From Candidatus Thorarchaeota archaeon (GTDB lineage: Archaea; Asgardarchaeota; Thorarchaeia; Thorarchaeales; Thorarchaeaceae): 64,000 bases of DNA. The notes beneath the pieces were generated by a model. It ran no database searches. It was not told the DNA's origin and saw only the letters and a program-made list of their open reading frames with translations. Location: contig JBHLRS010000009.1 of the NCBI GenBank assembly GCA_048882325.1, positions 1 through 64,000 of the forward strand. The letters are read 5' to 3'. Made by a program: the position numbers and the translations under genes. Below, one piece after another: positions 33,543 to 40,623 of the stretch (its first letter is position 1; the number at the start of each line of letters is the position of its first letter).

Positions 33543-35057
33543 CTATTTGTCAGATTTCTTCACAGCATCGGACAGGCTTTTGATTATACCAGTTGGTTCA
33601 AATTTCCGCTGACGTATTTTGACAAATGTGGGAACTGCTACCGTTTCGCCAACAAAAAGCGATTCACCAATTTCAAGAGTAGTGATCGAGTCCAATGAAG
33701 AGCGATCGATACCCTCACTTGACTTACCAATATGGTCCAGATCGTATGGATTTGTGCATCTGAAGATGGCTTGATTGCTACATTGACTTAGAACTGTCGT
33801 GGAGAGTTTCACCGGTCTTTGAGAGATTAAGCAGAGAAGTGCGTAGAACTTTCTACCTTCTCGTGCAATTGTTTCAATACGACTCTTTGGTAAGGCGAGC
33901 TCGTGTCGGCTCTCAGGACAAAACTGGTGAGCCTCCTCAAGAACTAGTAAGAACGGTGGAATCTGCTCACGTCGCCTTAGATGGAGAAGTTCACTAGCCA
34001 AGTGGGAAACGATGATTTGCTTCTTCTTAAGACTAATAAAATCGCTTAGGTCAATCAAGGTGATTTTCCCTGGCCTCACTACTGTATTGATGTTTGGAAC
34101 AGCCTCTTTCCCGAAAAGTCCGGTTTCATCAAGATTGATCAACCAGCCAGAAAGTGCCTCACGTGTGTTCTTGCTGATTTTTTCATCACTCTGGACATAC
34201 TCTACAACATCTGCTAACGTGTATCCCTCTCTCAGTGAGCTCTTCATCTCTGACACAACTCTGCGCAAGTCTCTGACTTGAATTGAACTCATGTCTGATA
34301 CAAGAGACCCTATCGCTTCTGCAGAAAGCGTTTGGACAGGTATCTGAAAATGTGAACCTCTGATATGCTCAATCTCAAATTGTCCTTTCGGTAATCCAAG
34401 GGCTTCAGGAGTGATATCCTGCAGATATGTGTATTCACCATGTACATCTACGACAACCACCGAAAGTCGACCTCTTTCCTTAAGCCGGGAGAGTAGCTCC
34501 TCCAGAAGAACTGACACAAAATAGGACTTGCCAGCACCGCTCATTGCTAGTATTGCTAGATGTTTGGAAAGTAAACGGTCAAGTGATGGGGCAAACTCCA
34601 GATTTTGATATGCTAACCGACCAAGATGAAGACCTTTTTCCAAGTCTAGTTTCAGAAAGGAGGCAAGAATATCTTCGTCAACTCTTCTAACAACAGCTCC
34701 TGGAGACACTGCAAAGTACGGTCGAACGGTTCGACCTTCACTCCATAGACCCAAAACCCTTGCCATAGCAATTGTGTACTGCCATCGGTCTGTTGGAAAG
34801 ATCGATCGCAGTGGTTCGCCCCTTGATTGGTATTCGCGAACTGCTTCTGCATGTTGGTAATATCGGTTTGTACGTATTAAATCTTGAACCCTCGCTATCA
34901 CTGTACCTGCATCAGTGACAACTGAAATGAATTCCCCACGGCGTGCAACAATTTCTTTAGGTCCACCTTCGAGCACAAATGAAAATTCCATTACACTTGG
35001 ACCAGCATCAGTTGAAACAACGGTTCCAAGTCGTGTGGTTGATGAAAATTCAGCCAT
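33543..35057 (-). CDS. herA: HerA helicase/translocase
   Basis: HAS barrel, AMSGAGKS, DVHGEY, LEEAHQF, AREGRK, SQRP; adjacent to nurA. Confidence 0.92.
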   Translation of the reverse strand: MAEFSSTTRLGTVVSTDAGPSVMEFSFVLEGGPKEIVARRGEFISVVTDAGTVIARVQDLIRTNRYYQHAEAVREYQSRGEPLRSIFPTDRWQYTIAMARVLGLWSEGRTVRPYFAVSPGAVVRRVDEDILASFLKLDLEKGLHLGRLAYQNLEFAPSLDRLLSKHLAILAMSGAGKSYFVSVLLEELLSRLKERGRLSVVVVDVHGEYTYLQDITPEALGLPKGQFEIEHIRGSHFQIPVQTLSAEAIGSLVSDMSSIQVRDLRRVVSEMKSSLREGYTLADVVEYVQSDEKISKNTREALSGWLINLDETGLFGKEAVPNINTVVRPGKITLIDLSDFISLKKKQIIVSHLASELLHLRRREQIPPFLLVLEEAHQFCPESRHELALPKSRIETIAREGRKFYALLCLISQRPVKLSTTVLSQCSNQAIFRCTNPYDLDHIGKSSEGIDRSSLDSITTLEIGESLFVGETVAVPTFVKIRQRKFEPTGIIKSLSDAVKKSDK

Positions 35058-35060
35058 TTG

Positions 35061-36224
35061 TTAGCCTCCAAAAGGATTTCTTGAACGTCTTTTCTCAAGT
35101 GTCAAATAGGTGAGCCCAGATAAAGCCATGAGACGGTCGATGATTAATCGTGTTTCATTGGTAGTAATCTTTGCCCTTGCATCAGCCTCAAGAATTGGAG
35201 TAGGCACTCCGTACTCAGGATGCTGTGAAGCTAAGGGGAGTATCGCAGAAAGAGCTTTATCCAGTTTGTCTGTGACTGCATCATCGTCCTCAGCTGAAAG
35301 ATACTCCACTCTTATTGGTAAATCATCTCTTGCAGTCTTCAGATATGTGACCCAGATTGATGATGCCCAGGCAGACAAATCATCACTCGGAGAATTTGTA
35401 TTAAGAACAAGCTCTGATGAGTATCGAAATGCAAAGGACCTTTCTCCTTCCTCCAAGAATGTATCAAGGAGATCACAGTCTCGAGATATTTTGAGTAACC
35501 ATCTATAGTCAACTCCTTGCATCATTTCGAAGATTTCTGGTTTTCGAACAATGTGAGGAAGAATTTCACCCATTATCGTAGCTACACGTGTTGATCTACT
35601 ATCTTTGACAATACCGATCAACGTTGTACCTTTCTTCCGGGCTTTGTGATAGAGTTGTTTGTAAAGAGATAGAACCTCTTGGAATTTCTCATATACAATA
35701 GAACCGGTTTGGGGACGGTCTCGAGGGTGATAGAATAAGGATCCATCCAATAGTATCAAATCCGTGTGATACTCTTCAAGAACTGATAGTGTGACTCTGA
35801 GTTCTGCTGCAATTCGTTCTAGTGATGCAAACTGGTCCAATTCAATACTAGACAATGTTAACATTAGTGGACTTATTTTTGGTTCAGGAAATGCATCAGG
35901 ATAGAAATCAACAATTGGACCATCTTCTGGTCCAAATTGGAAAATAACAGCAACCCCCCGCGTCAAGACCAAGTCCATCGATCTAAATCGTTTTCTGACC
36001 AAACCCCCATCAATCCCCGCAATTCTGAGACCTGATAGATTTGTAGGTTCTATCTTCGTGTAGAACTGTTTGTCAACAATATTCGACGCAACCGCTGGGA
36101 ATTTGCCTAGGTCAATTTTACTTCTGACATTTCTGAGGACATCGCCAAAGCGTTCTCTTGTCACCTCGATATGCTCAATCTCCTCAACCAATTTTGATAG
36201 TAACTTATCGAGGTTTCTTTCCAC
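35061..36224 (-). CDS. nurA: NurA nuclease
   Basis: AGIDGG, LLDGSL, GIVKDS, YGVPTPI. Confidence 0.88.
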   Translation of the reverse strand: MERNLDKLLSKLVEEIEHIEVTRERFGDVLRNVRSKIDLGKFPAVASNIVDKQFYTKIEPTNLSGLRIAGIDGGLVRKRFRSMDLVLTRGVAVIFQFGPEDGPIVDFYPDAFPEPKISPLMLTLSSIELDQFASLERIAAELRVTLSVLEEYHTDLILLDGSLFYHPRDRPQTGSIVYEKFQEVLSLYKQLYHKARKKGTTLIGIVKDSRSTRVATIMGEILPHIVRKPEIFEMMQGVDYRWLLKISRDCDLLDTFLEEGERSFAFRYSSELVLNTNSPSDDLSAWASSIWVTYLKTARDDLPIRVEYLSAEDDDAVTDKLDKALSAILPLASQHPEYGVPTPILEADARAKITTNETRLIIDRLMALSGLTYLTLEKRRSRNPFGG

Positions 36225-37906
36225 TACTTCTTCACTCTCACCTTTCTGTATTCCAGAGCAGCCTTAATTAATCCCAAGTAGAGTGGATGGGGCTTGTCGG
36301 GACGAGACTTGAACTCCGGGTGGTATTGTACTCCAATCCAGAAGGGGTGGTCGACCAGCTCAATTGCGTTGATGATTCGACCAGTTGAGTCGAAAGCAGA
36401 AACTCGTAGACCCTGTTCATCCATTTTATTCAAATACCGATCAATCAGGTGATACCTGTGACGAAATCTCTCATGTACCTTGTCGGTACCATAGAGTTTG
36501 TGTAAACGAGTGCCTTCAACAATGTGAACATCATGGCCACCAAGACGCATTGTTCCACCCTTATCATCAATGCTTTTCTGTTCATCCAACAAGTCAACCA
36601 CAGGATAAAGGCTGTCAATATCTACCTCTGTGGTATGAGCTCCTTTCCAATCCATCACGTTCCTAGCAAATGCTATTGTAGAGAGCTGAGCACCATAACA
36701 AATGCCTAGGAGTGGTATCTTTGAAGTTAATGCAACAGAAGCAGCACATATCATTCCTTCGACACCACGTTCTCCAAAACCAGGAGTTAGAAGAACACCA
36801 TCTACTTCTGACAAATCTTCATTAAGAAACTCCTCAGTGCATCGTTCTTCAGTTTCAACCCATCGTATCTCAATCTTAGCACCGCATGCAGCTGCTGCAT
36901 GAACTAAAGCTTGGTTGATGCTCTTATACGAATCTCCAAGTGTCGTGTATTTGCCTGGCATTGCAATTACGACAGATTCCGTAGCAGTTTGATAGGACTC
37001 TACCATTTTGGACCAGGTTTCGGTGTTGGGTGTCTGTGATTTCATCCCGAAGTGTTCAACGAGAATGTTTCCAAGACCTTCCTCCTCGAATAAGAGTGGG
37101 AGTTGGTAAATCACAGGAATATCTGGGTTTGAAATAACCCTCTCTGTGGGAATGTTACAGAATAAGGCTATCTTCTCCTTTGCAGCGTCTGGAAGTTTGC
37201 TCTCTGCTCTGCAGATTGTTACATCTGGCTGGAGTCCTAAACTCTGAAGTGTTCTGACACTGTGCTGTGTTGGTTTGGTCTTGAACTCTCCAACTGATTT
37301 TATGTAAGGTACAAGAGTGACATGTACAACAGCGGTACGAGACCTCCCCAACTCGCGTACAATCTGTCGCACAGCCTCGAGAAATGGCATTGCCTCAATA
37401 TCGCCTACCGTACCACCTATTTCTACAAGAAGAACATCAGGAATGGGTTCTTTTTCTATAACATCCCATATTCTTTGTTTTATTCTCTCAGTAATGTGAG
37501 GAATGATTTGAACTGTCCGCCCAAGAAAGCCACCTTTTCGTTCCTCCAGAATCACTGAGATGTAAATTTGCCCTGATGTGATATTCTGAGAGGGGTGTAC
37601 CTCCATTCCAGTAAATCGTTCATAGGTTCCAAAGTCCAAGTCAATCTCTGAGATTGTAAATTCAAAACCTTCGACCGGTTGAAATGTCCAAGTCTGATCT
37701 GTCACAAAGACCTCTCCATGTTCTATTGGATTCAGAGTACCAGGGTCAATGTTCAGATATGGGTCAATCTTGATTATTCGAATACTATATCCTCTGAACT
37801 GAAACAGTTTTGCAATAGATGCAGTGGTGACTCCCTTTCCAATACCTGAGAGAACTCCACCTGTAATGAACACAAAATTTGGTCTTTCTCGCATAGAATC
37901 CAACAT
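36224..37906 (-). CDS. pyrG: CTP synthase
   Basis: TGGVLSGIGKG, KTKPTQHSV, GICYG, QYHPE. Confidence 0.96.
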   Translation of the reverse strand: MLDSMRERPNFVFITGGVLSGIGKGVTTASIAKLFQFRGYSIRIIKIDPYLNIDPGTLNPIEHGEVFVTDQTWTFQPVEGFEFTISEIDLDFGTYERFTGMEVHPSQNITSGQIYISVILEERKGGFLGRTVQIIPHITERIKQRIWDVIEKEPIPDVLLVEIGGTVGDIEAMPFLEAVRQIVRELGRSRTAVVHVTLVPYIKSVGEFKTKPTQHSVRTLQSLGLQPDVTICRAESKLPDAAKEKIALFCNIPTERVISNPDIPVIYQLPLLFEEEGLGNILVEHFGMKSQTPNTETWSKMVESYQTATESVVIAMPGKYTTLGDSYKSINQALVHAAAACGAKIEIRWVETEERCTEEFLNEDLSEVDGVLLTPGFGERGVEGMICAASVALTSKIPLLGICYGAQLSTIAFARNVMDWKGAHTTEVDIDSLYPVVDLLDEQKSIDDKGGTMRLGGHDVHIVEGTRLHKLYGTDKVHERFRHRYHLIDRYLNKMDEQGLRVSAFDSTGRIINAIELVDHPFWIGVQYHPEFKSRPDKPHPLYLGLIKAALEYRKVRVKK

Positions 37907-38026: not shown

Positions 38027-38608
38027 TCATGAAACTGGTTGAGCAAGTATACTTGCACGCATAGCACTCTGAAAGAGATACTGAAATGCTTCCATAATGT
38101 TATGACCCTCTCTAGCGACGCTCCTGAAGACAGGCACAGATGATGGAATTCTCAAGTGTGACCTAAGCTGTTCTTCTTGTATGGCACTTGGGAGATCTTG
38201 TTTGTTGAGACACACGATTAACGGCAGAGGTCGCTCCTCCTCTTCAATCATTGACATTAACTCATTCCAACTTGCCAGATTTTCATCAAGGAGATGTTCT
38301 TGAGAGTCTGCAACAAAAATCACTCCATCGGCCCCGACCAGCACGACTTCACGTGTAGACCTATAGAAGTCTTGACCTGTGGCAGACCAAACATGTGCAT
38401 TGATTGTCCAACTATTACTCAGTGAAAAAGGAATAGTGCCAAAATCACAAAACATTGTTCTTCCAACAGTGTTCTCAATTGATGTCAGTTTCTCAGCATA
38501 GTCTAATGAAGAAAACAGCCAACGAATCGAGGTTGTTTTTCCACTCATTGCAGGTCCAAAGAAGACTATCTTGAGTCCCACCGTACGATTGCCATAGTCG
38601 ATTATCAC
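38027..38608 (-). CDS. small Ras-superfamily GTPase, MglA-like
   Basis: GPAMSGKTT, GRTMFCDF, SATGQ, NKQD, SVA. Confidence 0.9.
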   Translation of the reverse strand: MIIDYGNRTVGLKIVFFGPAMSGKTTSIRWLFSSLDYAEKLTSIENTVGRTMFCDFGTIPFSLSNSWTINAHVWSATGQDFYRSTREVVLVGADGVIFVADSQEHLLDENLASWNELMSMIEEEERPLPLIVCLNKQDLPSAIQEEQLRSHLRIPSSVPVFRSVAREGHNIMEAFQYLFQSAMRASILAQPVS

Positions 38609-38623
38609 TTATCTGACCCCCAG

Positions 38624-39544
38624 TCATGTTCCCCACATGCTGTCTACCCACGCTCCGAGTCCCGACAAAGCTCCGCTTTTTACACAATCAGAGAAATCTT
38701 CATGCCATTCAGCTCTTATGAATTGAATCAAATCAGGAAGCTCTCCTCCATCCCATCCAATGGCTTCATAGAGGTTTCTCTCTGTCAATGTTGTGGATGC
38801 GCCAAGTTCCCTAGCTAGACGAATTCTTGACAATAGAGTGACTGCTCTACGGGCTGCATGAACATAGTTGTTTATCTCTTCTTCAAACACATCTTGTGTG
38901 AGTTTCTCTGACTCGTCATCTAGTTTCAGAACAGCATTGAGAATGTGCTCTGAAACTTTGAGTCCACGAAGTGACTTAGTGAGGAGTCGTCTGATACGTT
39001 CTAGAGATTGTTTCTTTCTCACCAGGATCTTGTTCACAATTTTCTTCTCAACCTCAAGACTGCTATTTGATGGTCTAACAAGTGAGAAAGTAATGGATGA
39101 TGGTGAACTCACTCTTAATATTCCACAGTTGCCTGAATTTTTGAGAATATGAGCGGTTACATCTTGGAGCGTACTTTCAGTTACTTGTACACCTAGCACT
39201 GTGAAACCGAGAGGTACAGCAAGGATCCAACCTGCAAAGTGTGAGATTCTATCCATTGCTAGTCGAAGATTCCCTGAGAGACCACAAACAATAGTCCTAC
39301 TCACCTCATAGTTGTGTTTTTCCTCCTCCCATACTGCGAGAATCTCGGATTCGGAAGTGAAATCACGCCAGAACACAAGTTTGTGTCGATGAGGACAGAG
39401 AGTAGTCAGACTCTCTGTGATATCATCTACTAGTTCGATATCCTCACCTGCGACAATCACTGGCATCCGTTCCAGTAATGCATTCAATAGAAGAGGAAAT
39501 TGGTCGCCCATCAACTCGATTAATTTCATGATTGAGTATGTCAT
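38624..39544 (-). CDS. putative DENN/folliculin-like domain protein
   Basis: ALLERMPVIVAGEDIELVDDITESLTTLCP resembles the cDENN core; lies between roadblock and GTPase genes. Confidence 0.55.
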   Translation of the reverse strand: MTYSIMKLIELMGDQFPLLLNALLERMPVIVAGEDIELVDDITESLTTLCPHRHKLVFWRDFTSESEILAVWEEEKHNYEVSRTIVCGLSGNLRLAMDRISHFAGWILAVPLGFTVLGVQVTESTLQDVTAHILKNSGNCGILRVSSPSSITFSLVRPSNSSLEVEKKIVNKILVRKKQSLERIRRLLTKSLRGLKVSEHILNAVLKLDDESEKLTQDVFEEEINNYVHAARRAVTLLSRIRLARELGASTTLTERNLYEAIGWDGGELPDLIQFIRAEWHEDFSDCVKSGALSGLGAWVDSMWGT

Positions 39545-40488
39545 GGTTCTCTCCTCGTTAACATTAAGCCACCATCAGAACCTCCTGACAGCAGCAGCTC
39601 TTTCAGATCATCTGGAACTGCGGGTTTCACTGCAGAAGCGGCAGCTAAAACTCTTCGTATCTCCTCAATGTAGTGTTTCAGTAACAGTCTCATCAAACCG
39701 AGTTTCTGGCTATCTTTATCCACCCACAGGCTAAACACGCCATTTGGAACAGCATAGATGAAATGGCGAGTTTCAGCTGTTTCACAGAGAACGGTCTGTA
39801 ATGAGCTGTTCCGGAGTGTTCGTACTACTCGTTCTGACGCATCATGAAGTGCAAAAGACATTGCAGCCAATCGGTCGTTAGTAAACCCTTCTAATGAAAC
39901 TCGGACTCCACCACTTAATGAAAGAAACACGGATCCAATATTAGGAATGCAGTCATGTACTTGGCGTAAAAGAGCTCTGAGACTAAGTGCTTGTGAGCGA
40001 TCAAGGGAAATCATGGAGCGTGATACACCATAACTTGTATCACGACCCTCTGCCACAGCAAACCCTTGAAGTACTTTCTGAGTTTCGTCGATACTATAAG
40101 AACGGAGTGGAGGTAATCTTCCGTCTACATGTTCTCTCAGAAGAAAAGAAAGTCTAGATAGATTATCCTTCATCTCAATAAATAATGCAGCTAGATTAAC
40201 TCTGGGTGCTGTTGTTACTGTCAGAAAATAGTCTGGATCATTTGGCAACGAAGCAAGAAAGACCTTCGATGTATCAGACTCCATCAGTAGATAATTGAAA
40301 TCACCATGTATGAGTTTAGCCACTCCGAAGATTGCACAGGTCGATGATGCCACAGCAAAGACTTCATCCTTGCTGAACCATACTCCTGCGCTTGCAACGG
40401 GGAGTCCATCTTTTTGGATTAAAACGACATTCTCAACACCGGTGATGGCTTTTATGTTCTGGAGAGTTTCAGTCAATTCGTCGCTCAA
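39541..40488 (-). CDS. tandem roadblock/LC7 (MglB-like) domain protein
   Basis: GVENVVLIQKDGLPVAS..VNLAALF; second copy FLSLSGG..LAAMS..KLGLMRL. Confidence 0.82.
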   Translation of the reverse strand: MSDELTETLQNIKAITGVENVVLIQKDGLPVASAGVWFSKDEVFAVASSTCAIFGVAKLIHGDFNYLLMESDTSKVFLASLPNDPDYFLTVTTAPRVNLAALFIEMKDNLSRLSFLLREHVDGRLPPLRSYSIDETQKVLQGFAVAEGRDTSYGVSRSMISLDRSQALSLRALLRQVHDCIPNIGSVFLSLSGGVRVSLEGFTNDRLAAMSFALHDASERVVRTLRNSSLQTVLCETAETRHFIYAVPNGVFSLWVDKDSQKLGLMRLLLKHYIEEIRRVLAAASAVKPAVPDDLKELLLSGGSDGGLMLTRREP

Positions 40489-40623
40489 GTCCTCAGCTCC
40501 GGACGGAAAGTTGGGTTCAACTTAGAATCCTTCTCGCGACTATATAACCACCACACAGAATTGAAAATCAAACACTTTCTCTTTGCAAGTTCTTTAAGAT
40601 CGTGTATATGGACTGGAGCTTTA

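Follow-up and report, generated by a model that had tools for sequence, protein, structure and literature searches.

Organization of the three-gene locus

The 64,000-nucleotide stretch of Candidatus Thorarchaeota DNA analyzed here (contig JBHLRS010000009.1 of assembly GCA_048882325.1, positions 1–64,000; hereafter, the window) contains three adjacent minus-strand open reading frames (ORFs), which encode, in the order of reading, a tandem roadblock (RD-RD) protein (gene 1), a protein with a predicted DENN fold (gene 2), and an MglA-type small GTPase (gene 3). We consider this triad, with a probability of about 0.75, to be the Thorarchaeota copy of an Asgard operon composed of these three proteins, very probably the operon that Liu et al. 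had described (bioRxiv 10.1101/2020.10.19.343400; Nature 2021). The ORF coordinates (Table 1) matched exactly those of an initial annotation made from the sequence alone and reproduced the tight linkage that it had described: genes 1 and 2 overlap by 4 bp (39541–39544), and genes 2 and 3 are separated by 15 bp (38609–38623). Because of the 4-bp overlap, gene 2 may be translationally coupled to gene 1.

Table 1. Coordinates of the three genes, their predicted domains, and a candidate promoter element (numbering of the window)
Feature	Position	Strand	Basis
Gene 1, tandem roadblock protein, 315 aa, TTG start	39541..40488	-	Pfam Robl_LC7, AlphaFold2, and Foldseek
RD1, residues 1-120, better conserved unit	40129..40488	-	Secondary structure of the model and alignment
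RD2, residues 164-285, divergent unit, KLGLxRL motif	39634..39999	-	Pfam (C-terminal half), model, and alignment
Gene 2, protein with predicted DENN fold, 306 aa, no longin domain	38624..39544	-	AlphaFold2, Foldseek, and VIA-align
Predicted cDENN alpha/beta domain, residues ~1-160	39065..39544	-	Modeled strands 29-33, 54-58, 84-88, 106-111, and 141-155
Predicted dDENN helical domain, residues ~161-290	38675..39064	-	Modeled helices 164-192, 199-205, 209-246, 255-262, and 269-280
Gene 3, MglA-family small GTPase, 193 aa, GTG start	38027..38608	-	PDB phmmer search and motifs
Candidate archaeal TATA box, TTATATA	40541..40547	-	Read by eye, ~55 nt upstream of the gene 1 TTG start

The GTPase and the tandem roadblock protein

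When the gene 3 protein was searched against PDB sequences by phmmer, the four best matches were all MglA, with E-values of 8e-30 (107 bits) for Thermus 3t12 and about 2e-28 for Myxococcus; beyond MglA, the best matches were Arf (4e-9, 39.5 bits) and Rab (about 1e-8). Pfam returned generic Arf, Roc, and Ras matches, and Gtr1_RagA (4.7e-5) was far behind Arf. The segment GRTMFCDF aligned to ERTLFFDF of MglA, placing R50 on the intrinsic switch-I arginine of that family (Arg53 in M. xanthus), and S75-A-T-G-Q79 aligned to T-V-P-G-Q of MglA, so that Ser/Thr replaces the Asp of G3 (DxxGQ). The G1 (GPAMSGKT), G3 (TGQ), G4 (NKQD), and G5 (S-V-A) motifs were all present and were invariant or nearly so. 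Among 16 orthologs from distant Asgard families, GPAMSGKT, G49-R50-T51, T77-G78-Q79, N135-K136-x-D138, and A165 were invariant, and the first position of G3 was S or T in all 16. The PDB matches and the residue alignment confirm the MglA-type GTPase with an intrinsic arginine and SATGQ that had been proposed in the initial annotation, and the sequence clearly assigns gene 3 to the MglA type and not to the Rab-like type, as the literature labels the GTPase of this operon.

The gene 3 product is a G domain alone, without the C-terminal roadblock domain of Rag GTPases. Membership in the Rag/Ragulator system was considered and rejected on this ground and on the MglA-type assignment; the link to Rag/Ragulator drawn in the initial annotation found no support for the same reason.

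In the gene 1 protein, the Pfam family Robl_LC7 (PF03259) matched two stretches with an overall E-value of 7e-10; when the halves were searched separately, the N-terminal half gave 5e-6 and the C-terminal half 0.0073. An NCBIfam scan gave no match for the gene 1 or gene 2 protein. The AlphaFold2 model of the gene 1 protein, built with 16 orthologs, had a predicted local distance difference test score (pLDDT) of 79.4 and a predicted template modeling score (pTM) of 0.77, and it contained two complete units, at residues 2–120 and 164–285, both of which are predicted to adopt the alpha-beta-beta-alpha-beta-beta-beta-alpha order of the roadblock fold. By Foldseek, each unit matched the Thorarchaeota roadblock protein Thor-RB (7f8m), the MK-D1 roadblock protein (9jue), and MglB (6h5b, 6hjm, and 1j3w), as well as LAMTOR2/3 (6ehr and 5yk3), with a probability of 1.0 and template modeling (TM) scores by target of 0.7–0.85 for all of these groups. 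The fused tandem roadblock of the initial annotation was thus recovered by the two Pfam stretches, the two-unit model, and the Foldseek matches.

The pTM of 0.77 suggests that the model has a fixed arrangement of RD1 and RD2; the linker between them, which holds an invariant Pro-Pro, was poorly modeled, and long-range alignments of the model to Mon1/Ccz1 had root-mean-square deviations of 16–18 Å. Columns with at least 90% conservation numbered 20 in RD1 versus 5 in RD2, and the residues invariant in RD1 in the ortholog alignment were G17, V18, Q25, D27, G28, P30, G35, W37, and E42. This difference fits an asymmetric platform on which one unit would make most of the contact with the GTPase. 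In the beta1-beta2 hairpin of RD1, the ortholog alignment contained no invariant Arg, the column after Q25 being K, R, Q, or V.

A predicted DENN fold in the middle protein

The gene 2 protein gave no match in the Pfam, NCBIfam, or PDB sequence searches. It belongs to a small family with 65 representatives at 50% identity among 1.84 billion proteins, and its structure was modeled from an alignment of 37 sequences of this family. The AlphaFold2 model had a pLDDT of 89.5 and a pTM of 0.85 and showed a predicted alpha/beta domain followed by a helical domain. When the model was compared with the PDB by Foldseek, the top five matches were all folliculin chains, four of them with probabilities of 0.99–1.0 and E-values of 1.5e-3 to 8.7e-3; DENND1A/B and C9orf72 appeared lower in the same list. 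The all-against-all comparison by VIA-align gave Z-scores of 13.5 for DENND10, 12.9 and 12.8 for folliculin, 11.1 for C9orf72, 10.8 for SMCR8, and 9.6 for DENND1A, and its five best matches, all to DENN proteins, spanned residues 1–285 (ends at 282–289), that is, both cDENN and dDENN. Neighbors of the model in the ESM Atlas were DENND10/FAM45, Avl9, SMCR8, DENND11, and DENND6, which carry the Pfam families Avl9, DENND11, SMCR8_C, and DENN, together with a Heimdallarchaeota cluster annotated in part as Folliculin. At the sequence level, two of the 37 relatives reached Folliculin_C in Pfam (best E-value, 4.8e-4) and one reached DENN (0.093); the profile of the 37 sequences retrieved nothing relevant from PDB sequences, the only matches being spurious ones of ferritins to the helical part.

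The gene 2 protein might instead be a decayed P-loop/RecA-like ATPase domain of the PilT/GspE/RuvB kind with a helical tail, resembling DENN only through a shared alpha/beta sandwich. VIA-align gave Z-scores of 8–10 for PilT, GspE, and RuvB types, including 10.3 for an archaeal RuvB-like helicase, 9.4 for GspE and CpaF, and 9.3 for HP0525 and FlaI; Foldseek gave clamp loaders and DotB at E-values of about 1e-2, and the absence of a Pfam DENN match also leaves room for such an origin. However, nearly all the ATPase matches were confined to residues ~1–159, and the longest (PilB, GspE, and FlaI) ended at 226–268, whereas the five best VIA-align matches continued through dDENN; the Atlas neighbors and the two relatives at Folliculin_C likewise speak against this origin, which we regard as improbable. 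An active ATPase was rejected outright because the family contains neither a Walker A nor a Walker B motif; the loop between beta1 and the following helix is AGEDIEL, not GxxxxGK[ST].

The predicted cDENN and dDENN fold is accepted here, and the structural comparisons indicate that the gene 2 protein is likely to be specifically homologous to DENN modules. The initial annotation had guessed a cDENN core for the middle protein and had proposed a Foldseek comparison with DENN, folliculin, C9orf72, and SMCR8; the top matches of this comparison were of the DENN type, and the VIA-align scores and Atlas neighbors agreed with it. Its statement that a longin N-terminus is missing also holds in the model, in which the protein begins at the helix preceding beta1 of cDENN, leaving no N-terminal longin (uDENN) domain. 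The full-length relatives are all about 290–310 aa long, and no longer or fused forms were found among 8000 scored candidates, although this is weak evidence.

R26, P28, R53, and E75 were invariant in the 37-sequence alignment, and R83 and W106 were nearly invariant. In the model, these six residues sit just before or at the starts of beta-strands and therefore lie on one edge of the predicted sheet, a topology that suggests a conserved interaction surface.

Conservation of the triad and its paralogs

A profile search for the DENN-fold family among 301 genomes sampled across the Asgard phylum found it in 169, mostly as a single copy. Its members were present in 74 of 76 genomes of the family to which the window belongs and in 57/68, 15/19, 4/4, 4/4, and 5/7 genomes of five other families, respectively, and the named members came from Thorarchaeota, Baldrarchaeia, and Promethearchaeota. 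The same profile gave no match in several families (0/28, 0/11, and 0/11), which may reflect either true absence or divergence. A locus search with the alignment of gene 3 returned almost only Thorarchaeota.

The order of the RD-RD, DENN-fold, and GTPase genes, with close spacing, was kept in all 15 loci compared, which represent at least nine Asgard families, in agreement with the operon conservation that the initial annotation had proposed as a check. Clustering of all flanking ORFs revealed no fourth conserved gene beside the triad. The strict order together with the variable flanks therefore shows that the triad is a self-contained unit maintained by selection. These data bear on the idea that the three genes are neighbors sharing a transcript, with neither a complex nor mutual action among their products. 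A complex prediction for the three chains with the DENN-fold protein as partner scored 0.01, which is evidence neither way and so leaves room for this idea, and Tran et al. (PMC10933270) found Asgard GTPase genes mostly outside operons with regulators. Against it stand the strict order and tight spacing with varying flanks, the 4-bp overlap, and the fact that roadblock proteins are established partners of MglA-type GTPases (PMC3521125), and we consider mere adjacency very improbable.

The genome that contains the window has three MglA-type GTPases. On contig C53 (L136:1694-2651, minus strand), a 190-aa MglA-type GTPase (3.5e-38 to MglA in PDB) and, 13 nt further on, a 123-aa single Roadblock/LC7 gene (Pfam, 2.7e-16) form a canonical mglA-mglB-like pair, with an undecaprenyl diphosphate synthase gene downstream. 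The third paralog (C13:16375-16899; L137:1355-2161, minus strand; profile E-value, 4.1e-41) lies in a 268-aa ORF that is extended N-terminally by about 85 aa; no roadblock gene is adjacent to it, and the nearest roadblock-like match is about 7 kb away (C13:24205-24552). Because the same genome holds the canonical pair, the triad looks like an elaborated paralog of an ordinary archaeal MglAB pair.

Functionally, the triad could be an ordinary MglAB switch for polarity or motility, steering, for example, a pilus or another polar machine, with the DENN-fold protein as a lineage-specific effector or localization factor; this would imply no functional continuity with Rag/folliculin nutrient signaling or Rab trafficking. 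The assignment of gene 3 to the MglA type by a wide margin and the canonical pair in the same genome, of which the triad resembles a paralog, are in its favor, and a recent Myxococcus study (PMC13408092) shows that proposed guanine nucleotide exchange factors (GEFs) of MglA can prove to be effectors. On the other hand, the operon has no conserved motility neighbors, and every characterized DENN module regulates a small GTPase (PMC3521125); nothing in our data directly opposes such a switch, and we regard it as an unlikely but serious alternative.

Several further loci were recorded during the family searches. In Promethearchaeota GCA_054681365.1 (contig BAAHGB010000007.1; L003:3052-4936), two DENN-fold paralogs of 304 and 311 aa stand in tandem; both carry the core motif LLRAxLDRVPV, and there is neither a GTPase gene downstream nor a tandem-roadblock gene upstream. 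By analogy with FLCN-FNIP, they may form a DENN-DENN heterodimer. In two genomes of one family (f9), a second, more distant small GTPase (E-value of about 1e-20 to gene 3) lies about 0.5 kb past the operon GTPase on the opposite strand (L035:3700-4386 and L044:1160-1849). In many genomes of the same family, the operon starts 1.4–2.3 kb from a contig end (e.g., G008:C15:1733, G049:C28:1558, G065:C83:1678, and G071:C49:1631), which suggests that the assemblies repeatedly break a short way upstream of the RD-RD gene, for instance at a repeat or a mobile element. Weak matches to the DENN-fold profile, with E-values of 1e-6 to 2e-3, were found at G102:C3:86720-86917, G295:C188:3957-4160, G297:C34:24143-24292, G112:C56, and G112:C50 (L051–L055); they cover only the first 50–78 profile positions within ORFs of 300–400 aa and are probably the divergent DENN paralog families mentioned by Liu et al. 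for other Asgard lineages.

Relation to the published operon and to known regulators

Liu et al. (10.1101/2020.10.19.343400) predicted an operon, conserved among Asgard archaea, in which the gene for a Roadblock-superfamily protein stands together with those for a small GTPase and a DENN protein. They state that the GTPase is no Rag, propose a folliculin-like exchange-factor module, and label the GTPase 'Rab-like' and the roadblock protein 'LAMTOR1-like'. The present loci have the same three components, occurring as one such locus per genome in 169 of the 301 Asgard genomes, whereas here the GTPase is of the MglA type and a fusion of two domains makes up the roadblock protein. Because DENN loci occur once per genome and in the company of exactly these partners, it is highly likely that the two operons are the same. 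The operon and the folliculin analogy, which the initial annotation had implied to be new, were thus already published, and the triad is very probably a confirmed copy of a module that had been predicted computationally. Our literature search found no other paper joining a DENN domain, archaea, and an operon.

Zhang and Aravind (2012; PMC3521125) argued that MglB-like roadblock proteins, as partners of MglA, gave rise to the longin domain in DENN modules, the roadblock/longin fold being the ancestral MglA-binding platform of these modules, and they proposed that the eukaryotic regulators grew by step-wise accretion; the triad fits this scenario. Two later studies, one reporting folliculin/SMCR8-type longin proteins in Asgard archaea (PMC12290439) and one presenting solved Thorarchaeota roadblock and Rab-like structures (PMC10933270), do not address the triad.

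Compared with MglA-MglB of Thermus thermophilus (3t12 and 3t1q) and Myxococcus xanthus (6h5b), the triad shares the GTPase sequence type, the intrinsic arginine of switch I, a Ser/Thr replacing the Asp of G3, the catalytic Gln, and a roadblock-fold partner encoded close by. It differs from the bacterial system in that a single chain holds both roadblock domains, unlike the MglB homodimer, and in that the regulator gene comes first and is separated from the GTPase gene by a DENN-fold gene; it also occurs in an Asgard archaeon. In the bacterial pair, MglB contributes no arginine finger.

The C-terminal DENN part of folliculin (3v42; FLCN-FNIP2-Rag-Ragulator, 6nzd and 6ulg) was the best Foldseek match of gene 2 and resembled it across cDENN and dDENN, and folliculin also acts in a setting rich in roadblock domains. 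Unlike folliculin, the triad has no longin domain, no equivalent of the catalytic Arg164, and no FNIP-like partner, and the identity is only about 13%; unlike the client of folliculin, its GTPase is not a Rag. The catalytic arginine of folliculin, NPRL2, and SMCR8 is located in the longin domain, and the DENN domains of FLCN-FNIP and C9orf72-SMCR8 act as a scaffold or co-GAP (GAP, GTPase-activating protein). The comparison with Rag, Ragulator, and folliculin is valid for domain types only, since the triad has neither a Rag GTPase nor a longin domain carrying the catalytic Arg.

Among other DENN proteins, DENND10/FAM45, a Commander subunit (8p0v_M), gave the highest structural Z-score with gene 2, and DENND1A/B with Rab35 (6ekk and 3tw8) is a precedent for a DENN module as an exchange factor of a small GTPase. 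The eukaryotic proteins differ from gene 2 in that they act on Rabs and have an N-terminal longin (uDENN) domain within their own chain.

Proposed mechanism and its assessment

In the mechanism that we propose, the gene 3 GTPase would be the GDP/GTP switch, and the RD-RD chain would correspond to an MglB dimer and form one asymmetric platform for a single GTPase. This platform would accelerate hydrolysis by bringing the Arg and Gln of the GTPase itself into position and would supply no arginine finger; by analogy with MglB, such binding and stimulation through R50 and Q79 is probable. The DENN-fold protein would join the RD-RD protein as a second regulator. Its role may be that of an exchange factor or of a scaffold or co-regulator bound to RD-RD, to which we give roughly equal weight, and, with a smaller share, that of an effector. 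The assignment of GAP and GEF functions in the initial annotation was purely inferential and found no support, the triad having no longin domain with the catalytic Arg of folliculin. With RD-RD in place of the longin domain, RD-RD and the DENN-fold protein would resemble a DENN/folliculin module split over two genes. That the two form a stable complex in which the roadblock part replaces longin (uDENN), giving a two-gene DENN module that acts on an MglA-type GTPase, is a tentative proposal and, on present evidence, somewhat doubtful.

Several points weigh against our interpretation of the triad. Since the gene 2 protein has no significant match to any DENN Pfam model, its homology to DENN leans on predicted structure, and in that comparison the Foldseek E-values were modest (1.5e-3), with whole-chain TM scores of 0.37–0.39. 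A GAP mechanism of the folliculin type is unlikely because there is neither a longin domain nor an invariant Arg in the beta1-beta2 hairpin of RD1. The labels used by Liu et al. differ from our assignments, and the identity of the two operons is inferred rather than proven. Finally, no biochemical or expression work on any triad protein was found in the literature, and a search of sequencing runs yielded no RNA data, the runs being DNA from sediment metagenomes, several of them perhaps from the source sample.

DENN and folliculin-type regulators were long held to be restricted to eukaryotes. An Asgard DENN fold joined to a prokaryotic MglA/roadblock pair bears on the origin of eukaryotic GTPase regulation, a point in print since 2020/2021. 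To this, the present analysis adds independent support for the DENN assignment from predicted structures, and it corrects the GTPase family to the MglA type, whose intrinsic arginine finger speaks against a GAP that supplies an arginine finger in the style of folliculin. It also shows that the triad is self-contained and strictly ordered, and hence a compact target for biochemistry. If the split-module proposal is true, the triad would represent a surviving intermediate stage on the way from prokaryotic MglA-MglB to the tripartite DENN/folliculin regulators of eukaryotes, and cDENN-dDENN would have first arisen as a partner of MglA, not of Rab or Rag.

Surroundings of the locus

Close homologs are labeled Candidatus Thorarchaeota, and the nearest named genome for the GTPase is Thorarchaeota AB_25. 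The window is archaeal; by Pfam, the neighboring genes encode NurA/HerA, a GPN-loop ATPase, CTP synthase, and an HD phosphohydrolase. As read by eye, a Shine-Dalgarno-like run, GGAGCTGAGG, a putative ribosome-binding site of the GGAG type, lies directly 5′ of the gene 1 start. Downstream of the triad, pyrG (CTP synthase), nurA, and herA occupy 33543–37906 on the minus strand with overlapping or abutting junctions, and a separate TATA-like element, also read by eye, appears to precede pyrG.

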